Assembly (NCBI GenBank): GCA_039811685.1
Contig: JBDHZC010000002.1
Span: forward strand, 608,001-672,000
Source: Armatimonadota bacterium
GTDB lineage: Bacteria; Armatimonadota; UBA5829; DSUL01
Direction of reading: 5' to 3'
Length of the DNA: 64,000 nt
The notes under the pieces are model-generated. The model searched no databases and was not told the DNA's origin. It saw nothing but the letters and a program-made list of their open reading frames with translations. The translations under genes were made by a program, and so were the position numbers. Of this stretch, positions 31,824-52,385 are shown piece by piece (positions within the stretch are counted from its first letter, which is position 1; each line of letters begins with the position of its first letter).

Positions 31824-31838
31824 CGGCTGCCTCGCATG

Positions 31839-35527: not shown

Positions 35528-36180
35528 CTGAAGGTCTCCTCCATTACCGGGCGGAGCCAACCGTTCCCTTGCACCAGCTTACAGAAACGGTATTGGACCT
35601 CGGTCGCCCCTTCCGGTAGCACTGCGCTGTGGACGATATACCCCAAGTTGGAAAAATCGAGCGTGCTGACCGGATCGGTATCTAGCACGCCAAAGAAGGC
35701 GCCCAGCTCCCGAAGGCCCAAGTACGGCTGGTGATAGCATTGGCCCTGTCTCACTCTGTGGTTAAACTGGCGCGCGATGGAAGCAGGGTTCGTTGAACTC
35801 GCAAAGATGCGGGCACGAGCGCGAATGGCATAGCAGGGCCAACGAAGGATTTGGCATGTGCGTTGTACGCGGTGTTGTTTAATGTTGTAACCGTCTCTCG
35901 GGTGCGTCTCGCCCTGTGACGCAAGCTCATTCAACGTCATCGACATGTAGTTTTCCCAATCTATGTGTCCGCCGCGGTCAGGGTGGGGCAGCAGCCCGAG
36001 CCCCGTTACTTCCCATCGGAACTCTGGCTTCCAATAGATCGATTCTAGAATCCCTACAGCTGCACTAGGCGTGATGATTGGGTAGCTCACGCGTTCGACC
36101 TTATTCTCCGGCCGGGTGAAGCACGCATAGCGCCCCCAAACCTTTACCTCAATGAGATGGTTTTGTGAGTGGTCAAACAC
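35524..36180 (-). CDS. cas5: Cas5c (Cas5d), type I-C
   Basis: VWGRYACFTRPENKVERVSYPIITPSAAVGILESIYWKP, GQCYHQPYLGLRE; GTG start after AGGAGG. Confidence 0.92.
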   Translation of the reverse strand: MFDHSQNHLIEVKVWGRYACFTRPENKVERVSYPIITPSAAVGILESIYWKPEFRWEVTGLGLLPHPDRGGHIDWENYMSMTLNELASQGETHPRDGYNIKQHRVQRTCQILRWPCYAIRARARIFASSTNPASIARQFNHRVRQGQCYHQPYLGLRELGAFFGVLDTDPVSTLDFSNLGYIVHSAVLPEGATEVQYRFCKLVQGNGWLRPVMEETFR

Positions 36181-38377
36181 AGCAATCCTCCTGAGCCATC
36201 TCGACAGTTTCACCCAACCCGAGATAAGGATGGTAAGAGCCTGTCCAAAGATGTAACCCTCCAATCCAGTTCTCCACAAGGTAAGACTCCGAGAGCCGTA
36301 GGACATCAACGTGCCTCATGCACACGGAGATCCGCTGCAGTTGCTGCCACTCCGCATCCTCAGCGAAGCCCTTAGATCGGATGCGCTCGAGGTCGTTTTT
36401 GGTTAGCCCGGCGTGGCTGATCTCGCTCCACACAAGTACCGGGAACGTCTCGTCTGCGATCATCCTGTATTCTCTCGCTACAGCTGGATAATCGAAGTGC
36501 TCGCGGCGCTCCTGGATTCTCCTACCCGTGTCCGCTACGCTCTGGTAAAAGAGCCGAAAGAAGCTTTCGTAGAGCTCCGGGTCATGAAGATCCGCGTCCC
36601 TGTCCTGCAGTTTGACCTGCGCTGCCTGCATCGCCTGCCGGTACACACCAGGTGGTGCGCTTGCGTCCGTGATCCGAAATATGTGGACATCTCCAAATGG
36701 CGGCGTATTCGGCTGACCATTACGATTGCAGCGCCCGGCTGCCTGAACAATTCGATCCAACGGACCGAATTCACGGTAAACTACGGGAAAGTCAAGGTCC
36801 ACGCCCGCCTCAACAACTTGCGTAGATATCACAATGACCCTGCGTTGAAGCGGAGGTTTGATCCTTTCCAATGTCTTCTTCCGGTGCTGAGGGTGAAGGA
36901 GAGTCGATAAATGCAGTACTTCGACGTCGTCTATCGTCTGCTGCCGGACTTTCTTCCAGAGCACCACCGCCAGTCGCTTGGTATTCGTGATCACTAATAC
37001 CGATTCCTTGTGGTGTCGAACTATCCGGCGTGCGATTTCCTCCGCCTCAGCCTCCTGCGGCTCGAAGTGGTAACAAACGCGTTTGGCCTGGCGAAACAGC
37101 TCTTTCACATTGCCCAGTATTGGTCGTGCTTGCGGGAGCGAGACAGCAAAATTCATGTTCTGCTCGAGCGCGGGTTGGGTAGCAGTGCAGAGAAGAATAG
37201 TACACCCGTAACATTCATGAACGAGTGCACGCAGCATATCCAGGGTGGGTTCCAGCAAATGCGGCGGCAGAGTCTGTACTTCGTCAAGAATTATGACGCT
37301 TCGAAGGATGTTACGAAGTTTTCGACATCGACTGCGCTTATTCGAGAACAGACTTTCGAACAGCTGAACGGTAGTTGTCACAATGATTGGAGCTTCCCAG
37401 CGGTCAGCCACATCGCGCTGACGGCGCGCGATCAACGTCTGCTCCTCCGTATCCGGCGGCTCCAGACCGCTGTGGTGCTCAATTACGGCGTCGACAGGAA
37501 GAAACTCTCGATACACTTTGGCCGTCTGGTCTATGATTGAGGTATATGGCGCCGCATATATCACTCGTCGCAGACACGTGTGAGCGCCTATATGCGCAAG
37601 TGCAAACGCCAAGGTTGCCAACGTCTTTCCCGAGCCTGTCGGGGCCGTGAGAGTGAAAAGTCCGGGATGGTCTTTCGCCTTCTCCAAGCACTCAGAATAC
37701 ACCTTTGCTCTCAACCGATCAATGGATGAGGCCGCTCTGGTGAATCTCTTCCCGTAGGTATCAAAGAAATACTTGCGACACTCAGCCACGCTGGGATAGC
37801 TTTTCCGCAGCCAGGTATGCTCGTGCTGAGCGCTATCGTAACTGTCGGCTTCGACCAGGCAAGAATAGAGGAATCGCAAGAATGGCTCTACCAACCATTT
37901 CTCACGACTCAGGAACTTGGGAAACGTAAGTGGTCGGCGGTGGGCCTCCAAGAATTTGCGGGATTTACAATCGGCAGAGTATTTGTTTCTTAGCTCTGCT
38001 AGTTGAGTTTCGTTAAGCTGGTAGATGCCACTGTGATGACCAGCGATAACGGGCCACAGGAACTCCAAGTCTTCTGTGCATAGCAGCGCGCCGTAAGGGG
38101 AATGCACTACCTCTCCACGGCGAACAGAGTTAGGCGTGTCCACGCAGCGCTTCAAATACTCCTGGAACTCTGGCCGAAACTTTCCGACGTCGTGTAGCAG
38201 CCCGGCCATGTAGCCGTAATCCCTGCCACCAAACCCTGCGGCCAACGCACCTGTAAGTCGAGCCACGCGCAGAAGATGAGGTTCAAGCTCCTGCCATTTC
38301 CCATCAGCATTGGGGGTATGTGCGTAGCACTTCTCTGTGCCTGTGTCGTCCACTACCAGCTTCTCCTGCTTGCTCAT
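36173..38377 (-). CDS. cas3: Cas3 HD nuclease-helicase
   Basis: YAHT..HL, LLHDVGK, IAGHH, APTGSGKT, LDEVQ, TATQP, STQVVEAGVDLDF, QAAGRCNR. Confidence 0.95.
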   Translation of the reverse strand: MSKQEKLVVDDTGTEKCYAHTPNADGKWQELEPHLLRVARLTGALAAGFGGRDYGYMAGLLHDVGKFRPEFQEYLKRCVDTPNSVRRGEVVHSPYGALLCTEDLEFLWPVIAGHHSGIYQLNETQLAELRNKYSADCKSRKFLEAHRRPLTFPKFLSREKWLVEPFLRFLYSCLVEADSYDSAQHEHTWLRKSYPSVAECRKYFFDTYGKRFTRAASSIDRLRAKVYSECLEKAKDHPGLFTLTAPTGSGKTLATLAFALAHIGAHTCLRRVIYAAPYTSIIDQTAKVYREFLPVDAVIEHHSGLEPPDTEEQTLIARRQRDVADRWEAPIIVTTTVQLFESLFSNKRSRCRKLRNILRSVIILDEVQTLPPHLLEPTLDMLRALVHECYGCTILLCTATQPALEQNMNFAVSLPQARPILGNVKELFRQAKRVCYHFEPQEAEAEEIARRIVRHHKESVLVITNTKRLAVVLWKKVRQQTIDDVEVLHLSTLLHPQHRKKTLERIKPPLQRRVIVISTQVVEAGVDLDFPVVYREFGPLDRIVQAAGRCNRNGQPNTPPFGDVHIFRITDASAPPGVYRQAMQAAQVKLQDRDADLHDPELYESFFRLFYQSVADTGRRIQERREHFDYPAVAREYRMIADETFPVLVWSEISHAGLTKNDLERIRSKGFAEDAEWQQLQRISVCMRHVDVLRLSESYLVENWIGGLHLWTGSYHPYLGLGETVEMAQEDCCV

Positions 38378-38461
38378 TTCTCTGCGGCGCCGTCCCTCCC
38401 CTGCCCGGTAGCCGTGTTTATCGCCTGAGCCGGACAGGGCGCCGGTGACTTCCTGACGCAC

Positions 38462-38496
38462 AGTGTACAGCTCACCACTGTCATTTTCTGTCAGTG
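38462..38496 (-). promoter_or_regulatory. Putative cas operon promoter with an overlapping imperfect palindrome
   Basis: Minus strand cactgaca-gaaaa-tgacagtg, then TGACAG-N10-TACACT. Confidence 0.5.
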
Positions 38497-38682
38497 AAGC
38501 ACAGATCGAATGAGTTGTTGTGGGTTGTGACGGAGCTTAGTTGTCCGACGCTTGCCCTCCAAGCGGAGTGAGAAGGGGTGGAAGGCCGCGCCAACTATCA
38601 GATGACCACGTGGGGCGCGTAAGTTGACACGAGGCGAGAGCAGGTGGTGGTAAAGTGGACAGGCGGGGTGGCCTTATCGAAA

Positions 38683-40866
38683 TCAGCCTACTGGTGTTCC
38701 GGAACCGGCTAGCTCAACCAGCTCTTTCGGTCCCCAGAGCTTGACGCCGTTGGCTCGCGCAAATGCCGTGGCCTCTGAAGAGAAACCTCCAGGCGCTGCG
38801 ACGACCGGCGTCGTGCCGGGGACCCGGTCTGGGACCACGCCACGCAACTCGCGCACCACACTAACTCCGACAGGTGAAGTCGTATTCTTACACTGGATAA
38901 TCAGCTTTGCTTCAATTTGGAGGTCATCAAGACGAACAGCTGTCAGATCAATTCCGCCGTCGTTTGACCGCGGTGTGCTTTGAACGGTAAAACCCATAGC
39001 GGTTAGGCGCTCGGCAAGCCACTGTTCAAATTGTTCGCCAGTCATCGCTGTGAAGTTCGCGGCATCTCGCTGGATATCGGTTACGGCTGAGCGAGGAGGA
39101 GCTAGTCCGAAGAGCCCGAACAGGTCTTCTTCGTTCAGCATTACGCTCAAATCAACGCTAACGTCGTCAACGATGTCGCGAAACAGTTGGCGTTTTTGCT
39201 GCAGCCTCTGCTGAATGCGCTCTTCGATTGTGTCGGTGCATATATAGCGATAGACGGTTACCGGGCAAGCTTGGCCTATCCGATGACTGCGACTGTCCGC
39301 CTGATCCTCGATCGCCGGGTTCCACCAACGGTCAAGATGGAACACATAAGAAGCGGTCTGGAGGTTCAGGCCGACTCCTCCTGCCCGAAGCGAAAGAACA
39401 AGCACCTTATGAGCTGTGTCCAGCGTGAAGGCTTCCACTGCAGCAGCTTTCTGAGACTGACTCATCGCTCCTGTGTAGGCCAGTGGGGAGTACTTAGCCA
39501 GTCGCTTCCGAACCAGCTCGACTCCAAAGGCGTCATCTGTGAACTGAGTGAAAAGGAGGGCACGATGTCCTTCTTCAACAAGAGTCTGAAGCCGTTCCTG
39601 GATGTCAAGCAGCTTGCTGGACTCGCCGGTCGTGGGGTCACAGTTGCAGATCTGCTTCAAACGGGAGATCAGCTCCAGAATATGCGTTACGGTTATCTCG
39701 GATCCCTGCTCCTTGAGACGTATTAGACCTTGGCGCTCCGCGCGCTCATAGGCCTCCCGCTGCCGTGGAAGAAGATCAATCGACAACTCACTGGTGAGCT
39801 TTGGCGGCAGATCCTTGAGGACATCCGCTTTCTTGCGCCGAAGCTGGTGAGACGGTAGCATCGCTATGGCCTGTTGCGGATAGATGACAGGGCGGGTTTC
39901 TCCGCTCTCCCAGACTAGAAACTCGAGGATAGAGGCGACATCGTCAACGCGGTTTTCGAGAGGCGTTCCTGTTAGCGCCCAACGACGGTCTCTTTGGAGT
40001 CGTTTGCATGCAACGGCTATGCCCGTATCACGGTTCTTTATACGGGATGCTTCATCAAGGACAACCACATCCCACGCCTGTCTGAATGGCACGCTCTCGG
40101 TAACCTGCATTTCGGAACGCAGTGTTTCGTAGCTTACGATCTTGACATGAGAAGGCAATCGCCACAGAGCTGCTCTGTCAGAAACTGGGCCGCCGAGGGT
40201 CACTGATCTAAGCTCAGGAGACCAAAGAGCAAGCTCTTTTCGCCACTGCGTGAGCAGGCTTGCCGGACAGACAATCAACGCGTTTGCGATTTCACGCCGT
40301 ACGAACAATACACGCAAGGCTGCAATTGTCTGAATTGTCTTGCCAAGCCCCATATCATCGGCCAACAGCAATGACTGTGAGTTGAGCAGAGCCTTTACCC
40401 CGTCCCTCTGGAACGGCAGAAGCTCTGACGGCCACTCCAAGACGCTATCTGAACCCAGAATTGACTCCAGCGGTGGTTGCAGCACGGCAGCCAAACGCTT
40501 CATCATATCCTGGTCAGATGTAGAATCAACAGCTACCGGCGGCTCTGACGGCTTCACTGGAGTCACTCCAGATTGCGGCGTGTGGGTGCGGCCGGAGACA
40601 AGATCGAACCATCCGATCTGATGGGAGCGAGCTGTCGGCCGCTCGAAATCAGGGATAGCTAGCCCGGCGACGCGGGGCTTGGAAACTGACGGAAGTGTCA
40701 GTGTCTTGACGGAAGACAGGACGAGCGCGCCTGTCGCCGAGACAATGCGGGGCTGGACCTTGGGTTCCCAATCCCGCGGAAGACCCAGGAACCGGAACCG
40801 TGGAGCTACAGAACGAGGTTGTCTACGAATCCGCCAACCTGACGGTCGAGTCTGGCCATCCGGCAT
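38683..40866 (-). CDS. SNF2-family ATPase fused to a C-terminal Mrr-like restriction endonuclease domain
   Basis: LLADDMGLGKT, LDEASRIKN, LTGTPLEN, GGVGLNL, WWNPAIEDQA..R.HRIGQ; C-terminal FEQ.LA..GF..DGGIDL..IQCKN. Confidence 0.88.
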   Translation of the reverse strand: MPDGQTRPSGWRIRRQPRSVAPRFRFLGLPRDWEPKVQPRIVSATGALVLSSVKTLTLPSVSKPRVAGLAIPDFERPTARSHQIGWFDLVSGRTHTPQSGVTPVKPSEPPVAVDSTSDQDMMKRLAAVLQPPLESILGSDSVLEWPSELLPFQRDGVKALLNSQSLLLADDMGLGKTIQTIAALRVLFVRREIANALIVCPASLLTQWRKELALWSPELRSVTLGGPVSDRAALWRLPSHVKIVSYETLRSEMQVTESVPFRQAWDVVVLDEASRIKNRDTGIAVACKRLQRDRRWALTGTPLENRVDDVASILEFLVWESGETRPVIYPQQAIAMLPSHQLRRKKADVLKDLPPKLTSELSIDLLPRQREAYERAERQGLIRLKEQGSEITVTHILELISRLKQICNCDPTTGESSKLLDIQERLQTLVEEGHRALLFTQFTDDAFGVELVRKRLAKYSPLAYTGAMSQSQKAAAVEAFTLDTAHKVLVLSLRAGGVGLNLQTASYVFHLDRWWNPAIEDQADSRSHRIGQACPVTVYRYICTDTIEERIQQRLQQKRQLFRDIVDDVSVDLSVMLNEEDLFGLFGLAPPRSAVTDIQRDAANFTAMTGEQFEQWLAERLTAMGFTVQSTPRSNDGGIDLTAVRLDDLQIEAKLIIQCKNTTSPVGVSVVRELRGVVPDRVPGTTPVVAAPGGFSSEATAFARANGVKLWGPKELVELAGSGTPVG

Positions 40867-41365
40867 CTGGATATAACTCCTCTAGACCTCTTTGAATTCT
40901 CTCGAACGGTTCTGTTAGAAAACCTCGATTCACCAGTTCTTCAGCCAGATGATGGGCTTTCATTTGGTGCGACGGGCGCTCGTTGATCCAGATCAACTCT
41001 GCTGGCTCAGCCGATGCTGAAGGTCTGGCCATTGCAAATGGGATACTTGGCGCCAGTTCTTCCCTGCAAAAACTCATATCTCCGAGATCGGGTTCACAGA
41101 GCAGAATGTCCGGCACACGTGTACAGGCCTCAAAAAGCGCATGGCATATTTCGCTGGCGCTAATATTGCGCACAGTTGCTTCAGGCCACAGAAAGCCAGC
41201 CGGCGCCGACAAACTGGCATGCACGAACTCTAGCGGCTGTCCTCTGTTGTCGACAACTAGGAGGCCTCCAAGAACTTCACGGTTATCTTTGAGAAAGATG
41301 AGCCGAACGTACGCCGCAGCACTGCCAGCAACTGAGCGTGGAGATGGCCGGTAGGGTATTCCCAC
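40823..41365 (-). CDS. Hypothetical protein (180 aa) in the candidate defence operon
   Basis: ORF starting 3 bp after the upstream stop and overlapping the SNF2 start; preceded by GAGGT. Confidence 0.65.
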   Translation of the reverse strand: MGIPYRPSPRSVAGSAAAYVRLIFLKDNREVLGGLLVVDNRGQPLEFVHASLSAPAGFLWPEATVRNISASEICHALFEACTRVPDILLCEPDLGDMSFCREELAPSIPFAMARPSASAEPAELIWINERPSHQMKAHHLAEELVNRGFLTEPFERIQRGLEELYPDAGWPDSTVRLADS

Positions 41366-41368
41366 CTC

Positions 41369-42586
41369 TCAACCGCCTGCCTCTTCACCGCTGGGAAGAT
41401 CTTCATCCGATATTTCGGTGGTGTCAAACTCAATGTTGCCCACATCTACATCCGGGTCGTGCTGGGGATAATAGCGATGCATATCCCAGAGTGTTACCCA
41501 TCTACGAATGTCCGATCTCATAGTCGTGCTTGCCGCTAGCGTTTTCAGATCAGGCAGACTGAGGCCGTAAGCCTCTTCGTAGATTGCCTTTATCCGGTAT
41601 TTCACCTGTTCCTTCTCTTCCGTCGTAGGCTCCGACAGATGAATGGGCTGTTTTAGAAACTCGATTCCACGCTGTCCTCGATTATCAGGTTCAGCATCCA
41701 GAATTCCAAGCGTACCGGAGAAATACCGCAGCTCGTCAGAAGCGCCCCCGGTTATTGTCTCTTCCACAAAGCCTCGCGTAAGCGTGAAAACTGGAATAAT
41801 TCTGGAGCCACTCTGCGCCGCAATATCAATCCACCATCCAACTTCGTCATACGCCGCAAACCGTTGTTTCCTCGAAAACTGTGCCAATCTTTCGAGCTCA
41901 TCAAACAGCACAACGATTCCATTGCACCCACACGCGTGAAGAAGTTGAGCCATCACACGGATACGATCGTGAGCGAGAAGGAAATTCCTTGGGCCCCGAA
42001 GATCGTATCCAGCGAGTTGTCCCATCTCCCTCAGCTTCTGGCGCAATACGGTGAGGATCAGCGGCTTTCCTTCGAAATCACCCAGAATTTGCATCCGGAG
42101 CTCGTCGTCGTGTGTCTCCTCGAAAACGTGCAGAAGCGCACGAAACCGGTCGTAAATGTTTGCATCGCGAGCCCAAAGCCTGAGGTCAGCAAAAGCTGAT
42201 CCGCTAGTTCTCAAGTCGGGGGACATTGCGCGAAGGGCCTTGCCGGTCCTCCCTGGCGCCCGTGCGTTCTCTGCGAGAGCTTTCAACACAACGTGAGGAT
42301 TTCCCAACGGGATTTCGGGGCTCACGGTCAGATAGCTTGTTGCGAAATTCTTCTTCTCCGCAAGTATCTGGAGATAGTTGAGGAGATGCGACTTGCCCGC
42401 GCCAAAATTGGCGTCAATCACCATTGGTTCAGCGCACTGGCCGTCTGCCACCAGATCAAGAGAGCGTTCAAAGAGTTCTGCGACATCGCTTCTAGTGATC
42501 CCAAGTCGCTCTACGGCGTGTTTGCTCGGCACTCCAGACCGAAGCGCTTCAATGGCGCTGCGAGCTATCATGACTCTGTGCTCCAT
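41369..42586 (-). CDS. P-loop ATPase, BrxD/DUF2791-like
   Basis: AIEALRSGVP N-terminus, Walker A ANFGAGKSH, Walker B VVLFDELE. Confidence 0.75.
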   Translation of the reverse strand: MEHRVMIARSAIEALRSGVPSKHAVERLGITRSDVAELFERSLDLVADGQCAEPMVIDANFGAGKSHLLNYLQILAEKKNFATSYLTVSPEIPLGNPHVVLKALAENARAPGRTGKALRAMSPDLRTSGSAFADLRLWARDANIYDRFRALLHVFEETHDDELRMQILGDFEGKPLILTVLRQKLREMGQLAGYDLRGPRNFLLAHDRIRVMAQLLHACGCNGIVVLFDELERLAQFSRKQRFAAYDEVGWWIDIAAQSGSRIIPVFTLTRGFVEETITGGASDELRYFSGTLGILDAEPDNRGQRGIEFLKQPIHLSEPTTEEKEQVKYRIKAIYEEAYGLSLPDLKTLAASTTMRSDIRRWVTLWDMHRYYPQHDPDVDVGNIEFDTTEISDEDLPSGEEAGG

Positions 42587-43690
42587 TTACTCAACCTCCA
42601 GGTGGACTAGCGCCGCTGCCGGATTCGGACGATCGCGATCTCGCACTTCCAGCCCTATTCGCGTCTGCAAAGCGTCGTAGTCCGTATAGCGGCGCGGAGA
42701 AAGCGGTTCGTAGAAAGCTGGAGAAGTCAGGACCACCAGCAACAAACCTTCAAACTGATCAATCTCGTCAATAAAGCGGCGCATCATCGAGAGCATCTGC
42801 ATGTAGGCGGCCTTTGAATAGAACAGGCGATTTTCGACAGGGGTGTGCTCTGCCATCAGACCTTCTAAGTCTTGATGCGATGCGCCGGCAGCAATGGCGC
42901 GCTTCACCTGATCAAGTATAATGCGGTCGCGCTGAGCCTTGGAAATCTTCACACTCTCATAGGGTCGAAAGTCGAGGCAGATGACGCTTCCGTTGTACCT
43001 CATCTTTCTAACCCAACGCAGAAAAGACATTAGCATGTAGCGCGCATTCGTTTGGTTAATACGTTCGTAAATCTGAAGGCGCTTTAGCGCGTTTGCTTGC
43101 CCCGTCGCCGTTTGTCCAGAAAGCCAGTGCAATAATATATCTGTGGTCGATGGCGTATAGGAATCAGGAACCAGTTGCGCACGTTGCAGCGCCAGCAGGG
43201 CAGTCCGAAATTCAATGGCCATCTCGTGATCTCGAATCTGCGGTGTTGCGAGCTCTCTCTGATATTCATTCACGAGGTCATTCGCATCCCTGCCGTTGTC
43301 GGAGGCAATGCCTTCTAAATCATCGAGAGCGCGTCCGCGAATTTCGATTCCTTTGGAAGCAAGGAATCCCTGAACCTGCTGGATTGCCAAGTCCACCCAA
43401 GGAACAGACGCAGTTATTGCGAAAAATAACTTGTCAATTCGATGCAGGTCAGGTCTCTTACCATTTGCATCGAACTCATCGGTCCTGGGCGCAACATAAT
43501 ACAAGCCCGTTTCTTCTGCCACGGCGCTAAGTTGCGCTTGTATCTTTGCAAGACACTCGTCATTTCCGCTGACGACTTTGACCGCAGATCCGCCCGCAGG
43601 CAGGTATTCGTGCAGATATTCCGCCGTGATAACATGCATCCATGCGTCTGCGCTCATCTCCTGGCGCTCAGAAGATCGAAATATTCCCAT
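42587..43690 (-). CDS. DUF2791/BrxD-like protein with degenerate NTP-binding motifs
   Basis: EYL..YLPAGGSAVKVVSG, IN..NAR.ML.SF.RW, MRRFIDEID, YDALQTRI; no GxGKS/T visible. Confidence 0.55.
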   Translation of the reverse strand: MGIFRSSERQEMSADAWMHVITAEYLHEYLPAGGSAVKVVSGNDECLAKIQAQLSAVAEETGLYYVAPRTDEFDANGKRPDLHRIDKLFFAITASVPWVDLAIQQVQGFLASKGIEIRGRALDDLEGIASDNGRDANDLVNEYQRELATPQIRDHEMAIEFRTALLALQRAQLVPDSYTPSTTDILLHWLSGQTATGQANALKRLQIYERINQTNARYMLMSFLRWVRKMRYNGSVICLDFRPYESVKISKAQRDRIILDQVKRAIAAGASHQDLEGLMAEHTPVENRLFYSKAAYMQMLSMMRRFIDEIDQFEGLLLVVLTSPAFYEPLSPRRYTDYDALQTRIGLEVRDRDRPNPAAALVHLEVE

Positions 43691-43699
43691 GGTCTTGTT

Positions 43700-44530
43700 C
43701 TACCTGAAAGTGATTCCGTAGTATCTAAGCGGTCTACCGTCTTCAGACACGACCTCAAAGATGTCAGATTCCTTCGCGCTACTGGAGGGGTACTCGAAGT
43801 CGTAACGCTTCCCAGCTTTGGTGGCGCTGATACCGGAGCGGTGTAGGGCATAAATTTCCTGTCCAAAAGCGGACTTGGGGTTATCCTTCTTGTAGCCCGG
43901 AGACAGACAAAACAGATCGTAAAGGCCCCGAAATTTGGCAAAAAACGCGCCTGAATCTTTACTAAGATATTCAACGCCCCCGTATAAAAACTCTAAGAAC
44001 TGTTGTTGGCCACCCGTATTGGCTTTGTCTCGTAGCCTTTTCAATTCTGCGGCCACGACCTTCGGACGAATAGAGCGAAATAACTTCTTGCCAATCTGAA
44101 GAATGCCGCGCGACGGCAACGCCTGCAATAGAACCGGGGACGAGATGGCCATGTTTCCCTCTAGCAGGATACGCAGACCGAACTTCTCGCCACTGGCCAA
44201 AGTCCTCAACTCGTGCTGCCACGCGCTGGAGCTGAGATACGCGTAGACGTCAAACTGCCAGGCGGCTGCCGTTTCTGATGTTCCGCCTGGCAGCGCTTGC
44301 GCGGCTTCCATTGCTTGATCGGCTGCCTTCTGCCGTGCCGCAATATCTCCCTTGGCTACAGCCTTTTTCCACGACTTCAAGGCTGACAAATACTTGCTAC
44401 CTGCCCGGATTAAAGCGTCCACTTGGGCTTCATGAGTAGCTAGAGCTTCCTCCAGAGAAGCGTCATTGTCTGGACGTCCTGGTGCTGTATTGTCGCTTGT
44501 CATGTCCAGACTAAGGTCTTGTGACTCCAT
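43700..44530 (-). CDS. Hypothetical protein (276 aa), first gene of the candidate defence operon
   Basis: Long ORF with strong RBS GAGGAGGT; 9 bp from the next gene. Confidence 0.7.
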   Translation of the reverse strand: MESQDLSLDMTSDNTAPGRPDNDASLEEALATHEAQVDALIRAGSKYLSALKSWKKAVAKGDIAARQKAADQAMEAAQALPGGTSETAAAWQFDVYAYLSSSAWQHELRTLASGEKFGLRILLEGNMAISSPVLLQALPSRGILQIGKKLFRSIRPKVVAAELKRLRDKANTGGQQQFLEFLYGGVEYLSKDSGAFFAKFRGLYDLFCLSPGYKKDNPKSAFGQEIYALHRSGISATKAGKRYDFEYPSSSAKESDIFEVVSEDGRPLRYYGITFR

Positions 44531-44608
44531 TGGCCTTACCTCCTCGCTGCCCGATTACTACTGCGAAATTGCGTCTCTTTCCTGAATCGGAGACTGCATA
44601 TTTGCTAG

Positions 44609-44688
44609 GGTCAGAGGGCGGGAATGAGGAAGTCGTTTGTGGCGTCGGCGGAGGATACGGTTAGGCGCAGGCGGCTGTGAGGCTCGGA
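44609..44688. repeat. Right copy of the 80-bp imperfect direct repeat
   Basis: 75/80 identical to 28889-28968; on the minus strand encodes ..EPHSRLRLTVSSADATNDFLIPAL-stop. Confidence 0.92.
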
Positions 44689-44889
44689 GTTTGCGTGGAG
44701 CCGAGTTTGGGGCAATGGCTTCCGACCGGCTTCAAAGAGGGTGACGGCAACAGTGCGCGCCCCGCGCACGCCTTCCGTCAACAAGCCCCGCAAGCCTGCT
44801 ACTGTGACCATCTTGAGCGAAGCTTGATTCACAAACTCGAGTACGTCCAGTTGTTCAGATGACTTACGAGGTCCCTGTTCATCCACCAT
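44611..44889 (-). other. Short ORF or gene remnant whose 3' end forms the direct repeat
   Basis: 92-aa ORF; its last ~25 codons recur with conservative changes at 28891-28968. No family recognised. Confidence 0.3.
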
Positions 44890-44970
44890 GAGGGTGTCAC
44901 GGAAGACGCCTTGCGCATGGACGCTTGGAAATCCTTGCGCGTCAAACGGGTTGCCGGAGTGTCCGCGCTT

Positions 44971-45789
44971 TCACGGGAGAGGTTTGGTCGCCCGCACGAA
45001 GCCGCTATAGAGATTGTGCGCCACCTGCGCCGCCGCATCTGCTGAGATCGTTCGGGCGGTGGAGGATTTTGAGGCCAGGAGCGCCTGAGCTTCCTCCGCA
45101 GAATAGGTGCGCACCGGCTCAATGCTCGCGCTCTCGAACCCGGCGGCATGAAGCCGGAAAATATAGTCACTTTCCACAAGCGCGCCAGAAACGCAGCCCG
45201 TCCAGAAGTCAATCTCTGAGGTTATCTCCGGAGGAAGCGGTGCCTTCGTGACAATATCTGCTATCGCGAGGCGCCCGCCGGGTTTGATCACACGGAAGCA
45301 TTCTCTAAACACGGCGTCTTTGTCGGCGGAGAGGTTGATGACACAGTTGCTGATAATGACATCAACGCTTTCGTCTGGAAGAGGGATGCTTTCGATCTCA
45401 CCCTGCAGGAACTCAACGTTCGTCGCACCAGCCCTGGCCTGATTCGCGCGCGCAAGCTCGAGCATGTCGTCTGTCATGTCAAGTCCGCAGGCTTTGCCCC
45501 GCGGCCCCACGCGCTTTGCAGACAAGAGAACGTCAACACCGCCGCCCGAGCCCAAATCCAAAACCGTTTCACCCTCTCCCAGCTCGGCAAGCGCGGTGGG
45601 GTTTCCGCATCCCAGCGAGGCCAGCAGCGCAGCCTCGGGCAGATCTCGAGACTGAGCCTGATCGTACAGCTCTATGCTGATAGGGTCCTTTTTGCCGGAA
45701 CAGCAGCGCGCTGGCTTGCCTTGCAGCACTTCCCTTGCAGCACCCGCATAGCGCTCTCGAACCGATTTTTGAGTTTGCCTGTCTTTCAC
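44971..45789 (-). CDS. arsM: Arsenite methyltransferase
   Basis: ARCCSG, SLGCGNP, VLDLGSGGG.D, ISNCVINLS.DK, WTGCVSGAL. Confidence 0.93.
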   Translation of the reverse strand: MKDRQTQKSVRERYAGAAREVLQGKPARCCSGKKDPISIELYDQAQSRDLPEAALLASLGCGNPTALAELGEGETVLDLGSGGGVDVLLSAKRVGPRGKACGLDMTDDMLELARANQARAGATNVEFLQGEIESIPLPDESVDVIISNCVINLSADKDAVFRECFRVIKPGGRLAIADIVTKAPLPPEITSEIDFWTGCVSGALVESDYIFRLHAAGFESASIEPVRTYSAEEAQALLASKSSTARTISADAAAQVAHNLYSGFVRATKPLP

Positions 45790-46151
45790 CGTACCGTCTC
45801 CACTCTTGCCGTTTGCGTTGTCTGGCGAAGAAAGCCTGCCAACTCGCCCAACACCTGCTCATCAGCAGTCACAAAGACCCATCGCCCGCGTTTTTCCAGA
45901 TGGATCAGACCCGCCGCTCGCAGCTCTTTCAGATGGTGCGACACAGTGGAGGCGGCGACCTCGAACCGGCAGCAGATGTCACCCACACAGGTTTGGGCGA
46001 CCTGACAGTCGTCGAGACTGTCGCCCTCCATCTCCACGTTGGCGCCGCAGCAGCGTATGAACTCGAATATTGCCAGTCGCGTTGGGTCTCCAAGCGCTTT
46101 GAAAGCCCGCGCGACGTCGCCAAGTTCCCGAGCTGACATTTCTATATCCAT
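45786..46151 (-). CDS. arsR: ArsR family metalloregulator (Cys-rich)
   Basis: FKALGDPTRLAI, CVGDICC, STVSHHLKELRAAGLI; overlaps the arsM start (GTGA). Confidence 0.88.
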   Translation of the reverse strand: MDIEMSARELGDVARAFKALGDPTRLAIFEFIRCCGANVEMEGDSLDDCQVAQTCVGDICCRFEVAASTVSHHLKELRAAGLIHLEKRGRWVFVTADEQVLGELAGFLRQTTQTARVETVR

Positions 46152-46200
46152 CGAAGTATTAATACCACACTTAGTTCGATATGTCTACATTCATCGAAAT
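46138..46200 (-). promoter_or_regulatory. Probable ArsR operator pair
   Basis: Two related imperfect palindromes, atttctatatccatcgaagt (46138) and atgtctacattcatcgaaat (46181). Confidence 0.55.
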
Positions 46201-46404
46201 ATTTTTCGCCGCAGTGCCAGACCTTGCCGCTACGCGTCACTCAGCCTCGACGGCCGGTAAGTGTCATGGAGCTCTGCGCCTCCCCAGCGGCCTCCGGCTA
46301 CGGACCCGGACAAGAGCGCTGCCGGGTGCGCGAGCGGCCGTGGGCATGTGGACTGACCGGGTATTCCCGCAGCGCCGCGTCTGAGGCGTCAAAGGCCGCT
46401 GCGA

Positions 46405-48384
46405 TCAAGGAGCCGCTAGCGTTTTTTCCTCTGCGGGCGGTGCGTTGGGGTCCTCAGATTTGTTTTTCTTCTGCAGGTCATCACCCATCTTCCGCATCCT
46501 CTCCCGCATTCTCTTCATCTGCGCGGCGTCTGGCAGCATGACAGCCACCTGGAAGGTGCGGGGCTTGTCGTCGGTGGTAGTGAGCACTGAGCACTCAAAG
46601 CGAACGATTGCGGGTTGCTGGGCGGGCTCGTCCGGCCAGGTTTTGTCCTTGACGATCCTTACGAAGCCGTCGGCGATCTCAACCCCTCCCAACCGCTCGA
46701 TCATAAGGTCGGCAAGGCGCTGATACTGGCCGTCATTCAGGTCGGCGAATGTCAGGCCGCGCTCACCGGACAGGGCTTTTTTCTGCTGAGGTGTCAACGC
46801 CCCGTAGAGGCGCAGGAGATCACCAGGTCCGCCCATTTCAGAACTGAGATTTCCGGCCATAAACACAAAGTCCGGGTCAGCCATGAGCGTACGGTGTATC
46901 TGGCCGTCGGACAGCTCTGCCGCCATGTCAGCAAGCTCATCCAGCGTCAGCGAGCCATTCGTCTGGATCTTGTTGCGGTAGTACTCCAGCCAGCTTTCCC
47001 GAATCTCACAGGATCGCCTCACGCTCCAGTCTTCGGGGCGCAGCGTCAGTGTGTCGCCCTTCAGATCCCACTCATATCCAGCTTTCTCAAACGCAATTAC
47101 CATCTTCGCGAGCGCCTGCTTGCCCGGCGAAATGAAGGCGCCCGGAAGCATCATCCTCAGGTAAGACTCAAGAATCACCGGACCACCCGTGGCTTTAGCC
47201 AAAAGATCGAGCGTCTTTTTTTCGTCCGAGTGGTCGACATCCAGGCTCATTTCCTGAATTCCCGGCATCTTTTTGACCTCCACCTCTTTGAGCAGCGGCC
47301 CGGCCACCGGGGGAGCGTCTTCAGTCGGCGACTTGTGCGCAAGCAGGGACTGTACAGCGCCGGAATCTCTGAAATCCTCCATCAGCTTCTTTTGAGCGTC
47401 CTGCGGGGCCACACCGTCCTCCAGCATCCACATAAGGCGGCCAAAGAGATGGCCCATCACTGTTCCTTCGCCGGTAATGGGGAGAATACCCATCGGCATT
47501 CCATCCGTCAGATCGCCAGCGCCTCCTGCGGGCCAATCGCTGGAACGTCCCATAATCATGATCATTCCGCCAAATCCCCAGCTGTGTTGCACGCCATCGG
47601 CGCTCTCCTGCAGCGGCATCACGGTGAGGCTAGAGGGTCGCATAGACTTCCATGGGTCGTGTTGCGGATTTTCGATCAGACCACGGAACATGCTTGTCTC
47701 AGTGGCCTGGCGAGCAGCTTCGCGCATCTGGACAGGCGCCTGATTCAGGTCTATGGTGGCGCGGCGGCCACGCAGAAGCAGGTCCTTCACGTCTGGATAG
47801 CTGGCAGTTATACCTTTCAGGAGCTGTGCGTACGCACGCCCGGTGGGCGTTGCGCCCAGGTACGAGAGCCACGGGTCCTTATCCCGCAGCTTGCGGGCGT
47901 CAGCCTCGGACATCGTCAGCGCCCGGTCAGAAAGCTCGAAAGCCGCCTGGCGCTGCTCACGGGTACGCTCGGCGTCCGCCGCCTTCTGAGCGGTGAGCAT
48001 TTCGGCTTCCAGATCTCGCTGGTTTTTGTCCTGCCACCAGAGGTAGGTGAACTGGCCGTCGCGCTTTCCGCGCGCAAGGCGGTAGTGGACGAGGTTGGAG
48101 ATGTTATCCAGAAGATCGCCCAGGCGCACATCCTTCGCACGTACGCTGATATGGCGCTCGCGCACCCGCCAGTCACGCTCACTGCTGCCCGCCCGGATGG
48201 AGACCCCGGACTGCTTGCTGAGCAGCTCCGCAACGTCGGAGAGCTTCGCATACGTGACGTCAAGAGACACTTTCTGGTCCAGTCGCGGATCAACGGCCTT
48301 TTCATCCGTCTGCTGGGCCAGCGCCGCTGTGGACAGCAGCAAAGCTGCAACAACTGTCAGAGCAGGTACTCGCAGATATATCAC
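46405..48384 (-). CDS. Hypothetical secreted protein with a secretin/TonB N-terminal-like first domain
   Basis: Signal peptide; DPRLDQKVSL..LSDVAELLSKQSGVSI; GTG start after GAGG. Confidence 0.65.
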   Translation of the reverse strand: MIYLRVPALTVVAALLLSTAALAQQTDEKAVDPRLDQKVSLDVTYAKLSDVAELLSKQSGVSIRAGSSERDWRVRERHISVRAKDVRLGDLLDNISNLVHYRLARGKRDGQFTYLWWQDKNQRDLEAEMLTAQKAADAERTREQRQAAFELSDRALTMSEADARKLRDKDPWLSYLGATPTGRAYAQLLKGITASYPDVKDLLLRGRRATIDLNQAPVQMREAARQATETSMFRGLIENPQHDPWKSMRPSSLTVMPLQESADGVQHSWGFGGMIMIMGRSSDWPAGGAGDLTDGMPMGILPITGEGTVMGHLFGRLMWMLEDGVAPQDAQKKLMEDFRDSGAVQSLLAHKSPTEDAPPVAGPLLKEVEVKKMPGIQEMSLDVDHSDEKKTLDLLAKATGGPVILESYLRMMLPGAFISPGKQALAKMVIAFEKAGYEWDLKGDTLTLRPEDWSVRRSCEIRESWLEYYRNKIQTNGSLTLDELADMAAELSDGQIHRTLMADPDFVFMAGNLSSEMGGPGDLLRLYGALTPQQKKALSGERGLTFADLNDGQYQRLADLMIERLGGVEIADGFVRIVKDKTWPDEPAQQPAIVRFECSVLTTTDDKPRTFQVAVMLPDAAQMKRMRERMRKMGDDLQKKNKSEDPNAPPAEEKTLAAP

Positions 48385-48585
48385 TCGATCCTCTTTTCCC
48401 GGCGCGCATGCGCAGTATAGCACCTGCTGAGTGCGCGGAAAAGAGATTTGGAGAGGAATGGTTCAAATTGAGCGCTGCTGAGACGCGTTATGTGGAGAAA
48501 AGAGGAGTCAGGCCAGAGGGCCGAGCGCGCGTGGGGCACGGCCAGGCTGAGATGCCTTCACTCTTGGAACGAATCCCTCGCGGGT

Positions 48586-48693
48586 TACTCTCGTGACGAT
48601 ACGATTGAGGCGCGACAGCACGTTCGCCGGTTCAGCATCCTCGTATGCGAGCGCGCGCAGAGTGTGCTTAACGAGCGCTGTCCTCGCAGCGGC
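48586..48693 (-). pseudogene. Fragment of a SpoIIE/PP2C-type phosphatase gene
   Basis: AAARTALVKHTLRALAYEDAEPANVLSRLNRIV resembles the SpoIIE core, without the flanking catalytic motifs. Confidence 0.5.
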
Positions 48694-48904
48694 GGGCCTC
48701 CGCGCTATTGACGAGATGGCGGAGGCGGACGCTGTCAGAGTTGTCATAGAAGAGGGGCAGTGGAAGAGCAAGGGCCTAGCCTCTGAGCTTCTGATGAGTA
48801 CGCTCGTAGGACGCTAGCCCTTAGCAAGGCCTCCCTGCGATCCGGAGAACTCAGGCCCCGAAACGGGCTCCGGGAGGAACACTACCCACCTCGAGTCTGA
48901 GATG

Positions 48905-50056
48905 TCAATACACCACGCCTTTCTCGTCCAGCCATTTTCGCAGCCGTTCATCCGTATCTCCGTCCTCGAAACCATAGAAAACGTCGAGAAGGGCCATCTC
49001 TCCCTCCTCTTGCTTGAGCAGCCACTCCAAAACCGGGATGTCGTCTTTGTCTGCCGAGTTTGCGCCCCAGGCAACTTCCCGAAGCACCTCCGGATTGTTC
49101 GTACGGGCCACGACCCACTCCAGAACCGGGATGCCTCTCTTGCCAACCCGGCTTGCGCCATACGCAGCCTCCCGATAAACCTCCGGATCGTTCCTCTTTG
49201 CCACGATCCACTCCAGAACCGGAATGCCAGCCTTGCCTGACTTGCCCGCACCCTTCGCAGCAGCTGGTAGCACATTCAAGTTGTTTGTCTTGGCGACAAT
49301 CTGTTTAAGAACTGGGATGCCGGCCTTACCTGCCCTACCGGCGCTCGACGCCACCATCCTAAGCGCCTCCAGGTTGTTTGTTTTTGCGACAATCTGTTTA
49401 AAAACCGAGATCGAGAGACTAGCGACGGGTTGGTCGAGTGTACTCCACGCAGCGGTACGCAGGATCTGCGGATCGTTCGTTTGGGCGACGACCCACGCCA
49501 AAACCGCAATACCAGAAACGCCTGCTTTACTTGCGCCCAGCGCAGCCTGGTCAAGCACCTCTGGGTCGTTCGTCTTCGCGAATATCTCTTTCAGAAGCGG
49601 GACGCCAGCGTCGCCTGCCTTGCCAGCCTCGTAGGCCACCATTCGAAGCACTTCTCCGTCATTCGTCTTTTCTACGATCCACGCTAGAACCGGCAAACCC
49701 CTCTTGCCAGCCCTGCCTGCGCCCCACACAGCATTTTGAAGCACCTCTAAGTCATTGGTATTTGCCATGACCCATGCCAAAACCGGGATGCCATCAGGGC
49801 CTGAGGAGCCTGCGTGCAGCGCAGCGTCCCGAAGCGCCTCCGGATCGTCTGTCTTTTTCACAACCTGCGCTAGAACTTGGATGCCAGCCGTGCCCATAGT
49901 AGCTGCGCGCTTCACAACGTCTTGAAGCACGCCATAATCATCGTAATCGTCCGTGTTTTCCACGATCTTCGCCATAAGTGCGGTGATGACCTCACACGCC
50001 TCACCGGCAGCTTCCGTTGCCGCACTAGGCGTGTCCGAAGCGACTCCCTTTTTCAT
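48905..50056 (-). CDS. Alpha-helical tandem-repeat protein, about ten 31-aa HEAT/PBS-like units
   Basis: Unit consensus KTN(D/N)PEVLRxAAxGAGxAGKxGIPVLxWxVA; GGAG upstream of MKKG. Confidence 0.75.
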   Translation of the reverse strand: MKKGVASDTPSAATEAAGEACEVITALMAKIVENTDDYDDYGVLQDVVKRAATMGTAGIQVLAQVVKKTDDPEALRDAALHAGSSGPDGIPVLAWVMANTNDLEVLQNAVWGAGRAGKRGLPVLAWIVEKTNDGEVLRMVAYEAGKAGDAGVPLLKEIFAKTNDPEVLDQAALGASKAGVSGIAVLAWVVAQTNDPQILRTAAWSTLDQPVASLSISVFKQIVAKTNNLEALRMVASSAGRAGKAGIPVLKQIVAKTNNLNVLPAAAKGAGKSGKAGIPVLEWIVAKRNDPEVYREAAYGASRVGKRGIPVLEWVVARTNNPEVLREVAWGANSADKDDIPVLEWLLKQEEGEMALLDVFYGFEDGDTDERLRKWLDEKGVVY

Positions 50057-50096
50057 AATTCTCTCCGGAACCAGGACAGCTTTCTTGCGATACAAT

Positions 50097-50173
<77 letters not shown>

Positions 50174-50188
50174 TCGCCTTAATCTTTT

Positions 50189-50216
50189 ATATTACTGCAT
50201 TCTGGGGCAGCGTCAA
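50189..50216 (-). promoter_or_regulatory. tRNA promoter
   Basis: TTGACG-16 nt-TAATAT. Confidence 0.6.
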
Positions 50217-50312
50217 GAGCTATGTGTAGATGGACGGGTTTGCGTGCATTGATGTTTTCTTCTCCTCGATCTCGCCTCAAGCTGCATTGCCATTAGTGTG
50301 CCTCCCTATGCG

Positions 50313-51005
50313 CTAATAAGAAAAGCTGTCCACTTTCCATTTCCGGGTCCAGTTGTCTCGGTGCACGACCATCCTGAAGTTCGTCGTTGCATGCCCGCCG
50401 AATCTGTTTTCTATCCACGCTTCGCCCGTGACCTGAAGGCTTTTGCTGCTAAGCGCTTTGTAGCGCGTGCGGCCGATCCCACCAAATGTGGCGCCGCGGC
50501 CAAACCTTGCCGCTGGCAAGTTTTTCATGCGCTCCGCCACAAGTGCTTCGCATTCGTGAGGATAGAGGTAATCGCTGTCGTTGAGGTTCTGGACGTAAGC
50601 GATACGGTCGTCATCTGACACGCGCATGGCAGATCCAGTGGCGTCCATCGGAACCTCCACGTCTTTGCCGTCAACCTTGAAGATTTGCACAAGTCCGTGC
50701 AATCCCTGACGTATGGCGATCAACTCCGGTTCGGCCTTTGTGGCTTCCGCTTTCGGCGGTTTCTCCGAACCTCTCAACTCTTTGGCTTTGGCCAGCATCT
50801 TGCGTGTGTGCTCGCTCGAAGGCTTGAGCTTCAGCGTCAGCTCCCACTCTTCGATAGCGGCGGCGTAGTCTTTGGCCTGGAAGGCTTTCTCGCCTGCGAG
50901 GTAGTGCTGGCGAGCGCCAGCCTCATCCACCGGCGCTGTGGCCTCCTGGGCAAAGCCAGGCGCGCCGAGTAGCAACAACACTGTTACACAAAACAACGCT
51001 CTCAT
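50313..51005 (-). CDS. Secreted protein with an N-terminal TPR motif
   Basis: Signal peptide; ARQHYLAGEKAFQAKDYAAAIEEWELTLKLKP; RBS GAGGAG. Confidence 0.7.
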   Translation of the reverse strand: MRALFCVTVLLLLGAPGFAQEATAPVDEAGARQHYLAGEKAFQAKDYAAAIEEWELTLKLKPSSEHTRKMLAKAKELRGSEKPPKAEATKAEPELIAIRQGLHGLVQIFKVDGKDVEVPMDATGSAMRVSDDDRIAYVQNLNDSDYLYPHECEALVAERMKNLPAARFGRGATFGGIGRTRYKALSSKSLQVTGEAWIENRFGGHATTNFRMVVHRDNWTRKWKVDSFSY

Positions 51006-51332
51006 GACCTCTCCTCTTCGCCGCATTCTGGGCGGCGATCCTCTTAGACGATCTCCGGCTTGAGCAGTCTCACGCCTGTAAGGCGTTCATACAAACGCAC
51101 AATGGCGAGCCTGCCTTCGTGATTCATCACGCCGCCGTCGGTAGATACAAAGCGCACAGGCGCGCTGACCAGTGGCTTTTGTAGCTGGCGCACCCAGTTG
51201 CGTAGCAGACTATTGTTACCATTCCAAAGATGGCAACCGTAATGGTGACTCACTTGAGCCTTCCGCAGAAAACTCGACACACCTCGCGAAAACGGTTCAC
51301 CTCTATATGGCCTGTGTATTCAATGATACCAC

Positions 51333-51366
51333 GTCTCAATCCTCACCACCAAAGAGGCGATGCAAA
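51333..51366 (-). CRISPR. Solitary degenerate copy of the type I-C repeat (possible mini-array)
   Basis: gtctcaatcctcaccaccaaagaggcgatgcaaa matches the array repeat at 28 of 34 aligned positions plus a 3-nt gap; 14-bp leader motif cagccgctcgctta at 51399-51412 is identical to 30386-30399. Confidence 0.7.
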
Positions 51367-51425
51367 GTGCCAGTTTTTGCATCCTACTGAGCCCAGCACA
51401 GCCGCTCGCTTAATTTATCAGCGGC

Positions 51426-52385
51426 TCATGGGCATGCGTCGTAGCGGGTGGCTAATCGGCTGGCGTGGGCTTTCATCCACTCCCGGAACTCAAGGGGGTT
51501 CAGGACTTCCGCCGCGCCGCCGAAGCTGAGCGTCCACCAGCCGATCTCGGCAAAGCCGGCCACCTCTGCAGTGAAGATGACCGAACCATCGTCACGCTGG
51601 TGCGTCTCCTGGGTGGGGTGGCGCTGGGTCTCCATCACCAGACGGGCGACTTCAGCGTCAAAGAGAATCTCCACGCGCACGGGTTCGCCGGTCAGCACTT
51701 CCCAGCTTGACTCGTAGAAGGCATCCACCGAGAAGCTCTCCGGCCGCTGGAAGGTGCGCTGAGTCTCGCGGGCTGAGGTGATGCGCCCGGCTTTGAGCTG
51801 AATAACCATCCTGCGCTCATGGCAGAGGCCAATGAGATACCAGGTGTGGCGGCGGTACACAAGCGCGTAAGGGTCAAAGTCGCGCGGGCGGGGCTTTTGA
51901 GACTGGAGGGAGCGGTAGTTGAGCGCAAGGGTTTTCTGCTGGATCACGGCAGACTCCAGAAGCGACAGCAGGGCTTCGCTGATACTCTGGGTCTCGTGTC
52001 CGGTGGCGCTCCAGGTGACGCGTCCCGCAACAGCCTGGCTCAGCTTGAAGGACGCCTCGGACATGGCGGCTTCCACCTTGCGCAGGGCGCTGGTGGCGTG
52101 TCTGTTGAGCGGCTCGGTGCGGCGGATCGGACCTGCGCTGAGCGCCAGGCGCAAGGCAATGGCCTCTTCTTCGCTGAAGTTGATGGGAGCGAGCCTCGGG
52201 CGTCCCGCGACCTTGTAGCCGTCTTCAAAATAGACCGGCACAGACAGATCCAGCGAGAGCGCCTGAAGGTAGCGGTAGATTGTGCGTTCGGAGCGTCCCA
52301 GCTCACGCGCCAAGTCCCCGGCGTTCAGCGTTGGGTCGCTCTTCAGCAGATCCAGCAACTGCAACAGCAGAACAGATTTACTCAT
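51426..52385 (-). CDS. HTH-WYL-WCX transcriptional regulator (PafB/PafC/YafY-like)
   Basis: LARELGRSERTIYRYL, FSEEEAIAL, PYALVYRRHTWYLIG, FGGAAEVLNP. Confidence 0.92.
   Translation of the reverse strand: MSKSVLLLQLLDLLKSDPTLNAGDLARELGRSERTIYRYLQALSLDLSVPVYFEDGYKVAGRPRLAPINFSEEEAIALRLALSAGPIRRTEPLNRHATSALRKVEAAMSEASFKLSQAVAGRVTWSATGHETQSISEALLSLLESAVIQQKTLALNYRSLQSQKPRPRDFDPYALVYRRHTWYLIGLCHERRMVIQLKAGRITSARETQRTFQRPESFSVDAFYESSWEVLTGEPVRVEILFDAEVARLVMETQRHPTQETHQRDDGSVIFTAEVAGFAEIGWWTLSFGGAAEVLNPLEFREWMKAHASRLATRYDACP

Follow-up and report, generated by a model that had tools for sequence, protein, structure and literature searches.

A solitary type I-C repeat-like sequence at the edge of an Armatimonadota defence island, probably a vestige of a lost CRISPR locus

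We analyzed a 64,000-nucleotide (nt) stretch of the genome of an Armatimonadota bacterium (GenBank assembly GCA_039811685.1, contig JBDHZC010000002.1, positions 608,001 to 672,000; hereafter, the window), in which a single sequence resembling the repeat of a type I-C CRISPR array lies next to a gene for a WYL regulator. This repeat-like unit, here called psiR, and the short sequence upstream of it form a stub that probably represents a decaying, vestigial cas2-leader-repeat junction of a lost CRISPR locus; we put the probability of this reading at about 0.7. It is based on matches to the end of cas2, the start of the leader, the motif TGCAAAAA and the repeat, which occur in order and at similar identity. 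The original prediction for this locus had proposed an RNA coupling the WYL regulator to Cascade and had kept a relic of a lost array as a fallback; it is the fallback that the evidence favours.

The repeat-like unit and its upstream sequence

psiR, TTTGCATCGCCTCTTTGGTGGTGAGGATTGAGAC, is 34 nt long and occupies positions 51366..51333 of the minus strand. With one indel allowed, 28 of its 34 bases are identical to those of the type I-C repeat; a deletion removes 3 nt from the top of the stem. Apart from the arrays, no other site on either strand of the 3.42-Mb genome scores as high against the repeat, but the margin is small: seven sites come next, each with 26 matches, over 37-40 nt. The local alignment score of psiR against the repeat was 19, a value reached by none of 2000 random genomic segments. 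Thus, the match is not equalled at random genome-wide. The psiR hairpin comprises 7 bp (CAUCGCC/GGUGGUG) and has a folding energy of -9.9 kcal/mol, as compared to -20 kcal/mol for the real repeat; one stem change is C-to-T and preserves a G-U pair. Directly after the hairpin is an 11-nt handle-like sequence, AGGATTGAGAC (51343..51333, minus strand), in which 9 of 11 bases are identical to the real handle, TGGATTGAAAC. The stem base and most of the handle of the I-C repeat are kept, in line with the original claim. The unit is intergenic, being located in a 400-nt gap between the WYL gene and an open reading frame (ORF) of 237 amino acids. It has the same orientation as the array of the window (30294..28986), from which it is separated by 21.0 kb, in agreement with the first description. 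It is also 12.9 kb upstream of cas3, with approximately 10 unrelated genes between, and so shares an island with the cas locus while lying outside the locus proper.

The sequence downstream of psiR was evaluated for further parts of an array. A spacer-like stretch of 31 nt, GTGGTATCATTGAATACACAGGCCATATAGA (psiS; 51302..51332, minus strand), was placed right after the handle and is AT-richer. The very weak second pseudo-repeat that had been proposed to follow it (51301..51265, minus strand) could not be distinguished from background: its best local score was 7, the background mean was 6.8, and 52% of 2000 random segments equalled it. As there is no second repeat, psiR is a solitary repeat and not a mini-array. 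By comparison with a working array, which has a full leader and at least two repeats around a spacer, the stub has a leader of ~43 nt and a single repeat. The only clear hairpin downstream, GAGUUUUC-UGCG-GAAGGCUC (51256..51275, minus strand), has 8 bp and begins 58 nt past the handle. The predicted RNA fold of the whole region was no better than that of shuffled sequence (z of -0.66 and +0.62), and an Rfam scan of positions 50000-53000 at E values up to 1 matched a tRNA alone and no CRISPR-DR family.

The sequence upstream of psiR points to the origin of the stub. The WYL gene stops with TGA at 51428..51426, and an 18-nt sequence at 51410..51427 of the minus strand, GAGCCGCTGATAAATTAA, reads EPLIN-stop. 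It shares 14 of 18 bases with the end of cas2 (30498..30481), whose genuine terminus, GAACCGCTGATCACCTAA, reads EPLIT-stop. This remnant of the cas2 3' end, located before the leader-start motif, is newly recognised here. It belongs to a 32-nt block (51427..51396) that is 81% identical (26/32) to positions 30498..30467, corresponding to the last five cas2 codons, the stop and the start of the leader. The alignment score of this block was 34; the maximum in a null set of 5000 random segments was 26. The leader-start motif itself, TAAGCGAGCGGCTGTGC (51396..51412, minus strand), includes the 14-mer TAAGCGAGCGGCTG (51412..51399), 32 nt past which psiR starts. The reported identity of this 14-mer to the array leader was confirmed: it matches leader positions 30399..30386 exactly, and these are the only two exact copies in the genome. 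A relaxed form of the motif, TAAGCNNGCGGCTG, has four genome copies: one at psiR, two in the leader of the array and one in that of a second array, located on contig C13.

Between the motif and psiR is TGCAAAAA (51374..51381, minus strand), which corresponds in order to the CTGCAAAAAG that follows the second motif of the leader. The original prediction had also drawn on this sequence as a leader match; it is indeed present, at 51381..51374, but with 77 copies genome-wide it is weak alone and supports the comparison only through its order along the sequence. The distance from the cas2-like stop to psiR is only 43 nt, as compared to the 186 nt of the real leader. Upstream of the C13 leader, which does not adjoin a cas2 gene, the cas2-end part is missing. 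Because this part is present at psiR, the stub derives from a cas2-linked leader. A loose gapped alignment of the whole stub with leader plus repeat scored 94, with shuffled sequences scoring 66 ± 7 and one shuffle reaching 95.75; it was not relied on beyond the first block.

Even decay of the stub together with deletions further argues for a relic, while the repeats of the working arrays are near-identical and their leaders are 88% identical over 190 nt. The array of the window has 19 identical 37-nt repeats, GTTGCATCGCCCCTTCGGGGGCGGTGTGGATTGAAAC, on the minus strand, preceded by the leader (30480..30295). The second array (C13:11016-11689, minus strand) has 10 repeats and a leader without adjoining cas genes, and its last repeat ends with GAAGT. 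Together, 28 of the 29 repeats in the two arrays are identical, the terminal C13 repeat differing at 2 bases. The psiR hairpin is half as stable as the real one, and the handle differs at 2 of its 11 bases. The lack of a second repeat and of a target, the position at the island edge and the failure to find psiR in relatives are likewise what would be expected of a relic, as is the related debris in this group of organisms described below. Finally, repeat-like sequences outside arrays are common in the published I-C loci (PMC10120712, in the sections of that report drawn on here).

The stub most likely arose from an older or duplicated I-C locus that formerly stood at the WYL edge of the island. 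Recombination or deletion would have left 18 nt of cas2, ~43 nt of a leader that had lost at least 140 nt through internal deletions, one repeat and possibly a former spacer. The remaining junction would have been fused to the 3' end of the WYL gene, with alteration of the last WYL codons, and the stub would since have drifted evenly, giving ~18-19% divergence in the repeat and in the non-functional flank. We infer this order of events, as well as the stub's present lack of function, from the comparisons above.

The island edge and related CRISPR debris

psiR lies in a 25.8-kb mosaic defence island (25634..51440) between the core genes mazG (24854-25642, plus strand) and WYL (51426-52394, minus strand). 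The boundaries of the island were evaluated using metagenome contig L021, the closest relative found, whose WYL protein is 85% identical and in which WYL and mazG meet head-on with almost no gap. Homology to L021 ends at 25633, the end of mazG, and resumes at 51441, inside the last WYL codons. The psiR stub is the outermost element of the island at its WYL edge, the cas2-like block being 13 nt from the breakpoint at 51441. Since WYL and mazG abut in L021, the adjacency of WYL and psiR here marks the seam of the island insertion. From this comparison, the linkage is a by-product of insertion, with WYL a core gene and not a partner of psiR.

The conservation of WYL and psiR was also compared. 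A homologue of the WYL gene occurs in 49 of 61 related genomes. Among 20 WYL loci, taken from relatives and from metagenomes, none had a repeat-like sequence, the best score being 14, versus 19 at psiR; in 9 of the relatives' loci, the 450 nt downstream of WYL were additionally read by eye. When positions 50900-51600 were compared with the 61 genomes, they matched only the organism's own genome and G002, the latter over the end of the WYL coding sequence. Thus, psiR was not found in 60 relatives or 20 WYL loci, none of which shares both genus and island with this genome; the one closer contig, L021, lacks the island. Synteny with relatives in the family was too scrambled for dating the island. 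The RNA proposed to couple Cascade and the WYL regulator is not supported by these data: the regulator is encoded by a core gene at the island seam, its linkage to a repeat does not recur in the 20 loci compared, and no PAM-flanked target was found in the searches described below.

The WYL gene encodes an HTH-WYL-WCX regulator that, over its full length, matches the N-terminal 318 positions of a PADLOC 'Cas3c' model (E = 6e-38). This model seems to include a WYL-Cas3 fusion; the WYL gene here is a conserved core gene.

Related pieces occur elsewhere in the island. An inverted stub with leader-start and repeat-start sequence, GCAGGCGGCTGTG-GGGCTCGGATC-GCACTTTGCCTCGAA (28947..28985, plus strand), abuts the trailer end of the array. 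Aligned with the upstream part and repeat start of psiR, it scored 30 (null maximum of 26 in 5000 trials), and the two share the 13-mer GCAGGCGGCTGTG. Both stubs carry GGGCTC directly after the motif and GCAC before the repeat start, neither of which is in the real leader, and in both the first position of the repeat is T instead of G. The inverted stub is held in one copy (28889-28968) of an 80-nt element whose second copy, at 44609..44688 (plus strand), is 94% identical. The element has exactly two copies in the genome, and its array-side end is the inverted leader-start motif. The two copies are direct repeats on either side of 15.7 kb that include the cas operon and array together with the ZorD-like and BrxD-like genes, and each precedes a defence operon by ~70-80 nt: the type IV restriction gene (28820..25740) in one case and a 276-amino-acid ORF (44530..43700) in the other. 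The 13-mer GC[AG][AG]GCGGCTGTG has seven genome copies, of which five are CRISPR-linked: three leader starts, including that of the psiR stub, and the inverted copies by the array trailer and in its 94% duplicate.

In the sister genus, the repeat (GTTGCATCGGCCCTTCGGGGCCGGTGAGGATTGAAAC) is related, with a compensated stem change, and the leader retains the hairpin after the motif and lacks most of the motif. In one genome of this genus (L042; G002:C73), a perfect solitary repeat at 10656-10692 is 5.9 kb from the end of the array, with coding-like DNA on both sides; this split could stem from DNA inserted into the array or from a join made in assembly. The inverted stub, its copy 15.7 kb away and the split repeat of the sister genus together indicate that arrays in this group do leave such debris, and CRISPR pieces at the seams of modules seem to be usual in it.

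Approximately 190 nt beyond the trailer of the C13 array is an inverted GAACCGCTGAT, a cas2-end 11-mer with eight genome copies, followed 23 nt on by GGCTCAG. The spacing is the same as at psiR.

Targets, transcription and alternative readings

Targets of psiS were searched for in the genome, the window and sequence collections. The best genome-wide site with a TTC protospacer-adjacent motif (PAM) matched 11 of the first 12 bases but fell within a long ORF (C4:135040-136185) and not in a promoter; we estimate that ~0.2 TTC-flanked sites with 11 of 12 seed matches would be expected by chance. The search of promoters for TTC plus a partial guide match, suggested with the original prediction, thus yielded no candidate. 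In the window, there was no site with at least 11 of 15 seed positions and a TTN or NTC PAM, and a search with any PAM likewise gave nothing usable, which agrees with the initial inspection by eye. In 10 upstream regions from the island and the DNA flanking it, the best site matched 10 of 15 positions, without a TTN or NTC PAM. Short-word BLAST of 43 nt against the genome returned only 11- to 13-mers with E values of at least 1.3; a 13-mer match at C1:164006 has a TCA PAM, and its chance expectation is about 0.1-1. Outside the genome, there were no psiS matches in IMG/VR using two patterns, the best match in the phage collection had an E value of 6, plasmids gave no match, and species-representative genomes searched with handle plus seed gave none.

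Several observations weigh against a relic. The part of psiR that is relevant to Cas5c survives, with the 7-bp hairpin followed by 9 of the 11 handle bases, so that processing by Cas5c would be possible. psiR is on the strand of the cas operon and within a defence island, and working I-C solitary repeat units are known from such settings (10.1101/2024.12.27.630466, in the text available). Among the relatives compared, none shared both genus and island with this organism. With 15 contigs and a completeness of 97%, the assembly could miss a target of psiS in a gap or on a mobile element. Finally, the region next to psiR may be transcribed, although DNA carry-over in RNA libraries may account for this. 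Part of the window is contained in 20 public runs from 12 studies, mostly of activated sludge; only contigs were compared, and these show neither RNA ends nor strand. Besides X1, the possible source sample, 13 DNA runs contain at least half of the words sampled from the stretch. RNA-library contigs from two different studies match positions 50920-51306 (X17) and 50997-51249 (X18), just downstream of psiR, without a difference. They span the start of the 237-amino-acid gene and up to 280 nt upstream of it, which fits a long 5' untranslated region or read-through. No RNA-library contig covers 51307-51426, which includes psiR; this gap proves nothing about transcription. Similarly, DNA run X14 has nothing over 51116-51381, a gap that proves nothing about strain variation. 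A promoter scan found no sigma-70-like site upstream of psiR and one site downstream (51236..51209); it found none in the real leader either, and therefore says little for this organism.

A contig of 273 nt from X14, matching 50930-51115, continues with 87 letters that were not placed on the window.

The preserved hairpin and handle, the strand and the island setting would also fit a working solitary repeat unit, transcribed by read-through from WYL or from a local promoter and cut by Cas5c after the hairpin. Its product, an 11-nt handle (AGGAUUGAGAC) plus a 31-nt guide, would enable Cascade to repress a promoter, as in the crlRNA, CreR or CRISIS types, or to act against a mobile element. Such a unit could do without a second repeat, as the I-C solitary units described in the available text of 10.1101/2024.12.27.630466 yield crlRNAs of 48-50 nt without one, and the RNA-library contigs over the immediately downstream DNA are consistent with its transcription. 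However, searches of the genome, the window and the island promoters gave no partial target flanked by a TTC or TTA PAM, and no full protospacer was found in IMG/VR, phages, plasmids or species-representative genomes. Nor is psiR located between regulated genes and cas5c, as the known I-C units are according to that text; cas3 and cas5 overlap. The only clear 3' hairpin starts 58 nt past the handle, whereas by our own reckoning the loop would be expected ~37-39 nt past it if a crlRNA of 48-50 nt ended there. In addition, psiR was not found in relatives and is as diverged as its non-functional flanks. Weighed together, these points make a working unit unlikely. A broader proposal, slightly less likely again, is that the stub is alive as a one-guide unit, read through from WYL, cut by Cas5c at 51344/51343, loaded into Cascade and directed at a target outside the assembly, on a sludge mobile element or in an unassembled part, and that the leader-start motif, common to the stub, both leaders and the two 80-nt elements, also ties arrays and defence modules into one recombining or co-regulated set.

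The stub might instead act as DNA, the leader-start motif and the bases following it providing a recombination or docking site, or an operator, for arrays and defence modules and so allowing their exchange, recapture or co-regulation. The CRISPR linkage of 5 of the 7 genome copies of the 13-mer is in keeping with such a role, as are the 80-nt direct repeats, which bracket the 15.7-kb block and each stand upstream of a defence operon. A recapture function for remnant repeats has also been proposed (PMC10120712, in the sections drawn on here). Against this, there is no recombinase or integrase among the island ORFs scanned, the leader of the sister genus is without most of the motif, no rearranged form was seen, and the stubs are equally well explained as passive recombination scars. 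We regard a role as DNA as doubtful, more so than that of a guide RNA. By far the least probable explanation is that psiR resembles the repeat by chance. The margin over genomic noise is thin (28 matches versus seven sites with 26), yet no random segment among 2000 attained the alignment score, and psiR starts 32 nt past a 14-mer otherwise found only in the array leader, beside the cas2-end match, in the right order and on the right strand. As this order and strand fit a real leader-repeat junction, chance is excluded for practical purposes. A vestigial junction thus remains the reading that we prefer.

A relic alone would matter little, as it would be one more repeat-like leftover of a known, common kind. 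As a marker, the stub would indicate that a second cas2-leader-array junction once stood at the edge of the island; together, the psiR stub, the inverted stub and the duplicate of the latter show a mosaic defence island whose seams are marked by pieces of CRISPR loci. The locus also calls for caution in that gene neighbourhood alone is no proof of function, WYL being a core gene at the insertion site. If psiR were processed and had a target, regulation by I-C crlRNAs would extend far outside the cas operon.

Known systems and other features of the window

Among the closest published counterparts of psiR are the standalone repeats of I-C loci. According to the sections of Shmakov et al. 2023 (PMC10120712) drawn on here, a repeat-like sequence occurs outside the array in 34% of 1206 I-C loci, many of these sequences being partly degraded; a degenerate repeat and a solitary unit are described as left by a lost locus, and conservation in closely related loci is used as the criterion for a functional element. 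Like these standalone repeats, psiR is a partly degraded, intergenic copy of the repeat in a genome with an active system. Unlike those described in these sections, it lies outside the cas locus, at the edge of a defence island, and its stub retains the cas2 end and leader pieces, which reveal its origin.

As a guide, psiR would come closest to the I-C solitary repeat units, which, as reported in the available text of Shu et al. 2024 (10.1101/2024.12.27.630466), give rise to crlRNAs that control CRISIS, Nezha and Gabija. Each unit comprises a repeat-like hairpin, an 11-nt handle and a guide, of which ~16 bases pair with a nearby promoter, positions 6 and 12 being free and the PAM being TTC or TTA. 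The unit stands between the regulated genes and cas5c, and its RNA is 48-50 nt long, Cascade-dependent and ends in a 3' hairpin. psiR resembles these units in its I-C type, its single hairpin with an 11-nt handle-like tail, its lack of a convincing second repeat and its defence-island setting. It differs from the units as there described in that the searches gave no target in a promoter next to a TTC or TTA PAM, it is not between regulated genes and cas5c, its 3' hairpin is off the expected distance and no conservation was seen.

Two other assignments had been raised originally, and neither was supported. The first, a guide of CreA/CreR type, refers to mini-arrays that, in the portion of 10.1101/2023.03.10.532045 consulted, occur in I-B, I-E and V-A systems and partially match a cas or toxin promoter. 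psiR is similar in that it is degenerate, precedes a spacer-like stretch and lies near cas genes. However, it has no second repeat, and no PAM-flanked partial match to such a promoter was found. The second, an inhibitor related to the Racr RNA anti-CRISPRs, which the part of Camara-Wilpert et al. 2023 (PMC10651486) used here describes as encoded in viral genomes, shares with psiR a solitary unit resembling the host repeat. In contrast, psiR is chromosomal and lies in an island between host core genes, in which no phage, plasmid, integrase or recombinase genes were found among the ORFs scanned.

The assignment to subtype I-C was upheld by a full set of cas genes. The window contains a complete type I-C system on the minus strand: Cas8c/Csd1, Cas5d, Cas7, Cas3, Cas4, Cas1 and Cas2. 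Specifically, cas3 (38461..36173) overlaps cas5 (36309..35524), and these are accompanied by cas8c (35560..33611), cas7 (33720..32491) and cas2 (30777..30481); cas4 and cas1 are also in the operon, and cas2 is followed by the 186-nt leader.

In coordinate order, the island contains a gene for a type IV restriction enzyme, the array with the cas operon, a SNF2-Mrr gene that is ZorD-like, a pair of BrxD-like ATPase genes, an ArsR-like regulator with a methyltransferase, two genes for proteins with signal-peptide-like N-termini, a HEAT-repeat gene and a tRNA-Met. The signal-peptide-like calls were based on hydrophobic N-termini judged by eye, no predictor being used. The tRNA-Met (50097-50173, minus strand) sits in the island interior. 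The ArsR-type helix-turn-helix protein (121 amino acids; 45786-46151, minus strand) is encoded beside the S-adenosylmethionine-dependent methyltransferase and matches PADLOC Csa3 models at E = 2e-17; the two are probably an arsenic-type pair, though inside the island. Outside the island, intergenic tandem repeats at 10007-10423 consist of 2.4 copies of a 125-nt unit (95% matches), preceded by 2.3 copies of a 31-nt unit.

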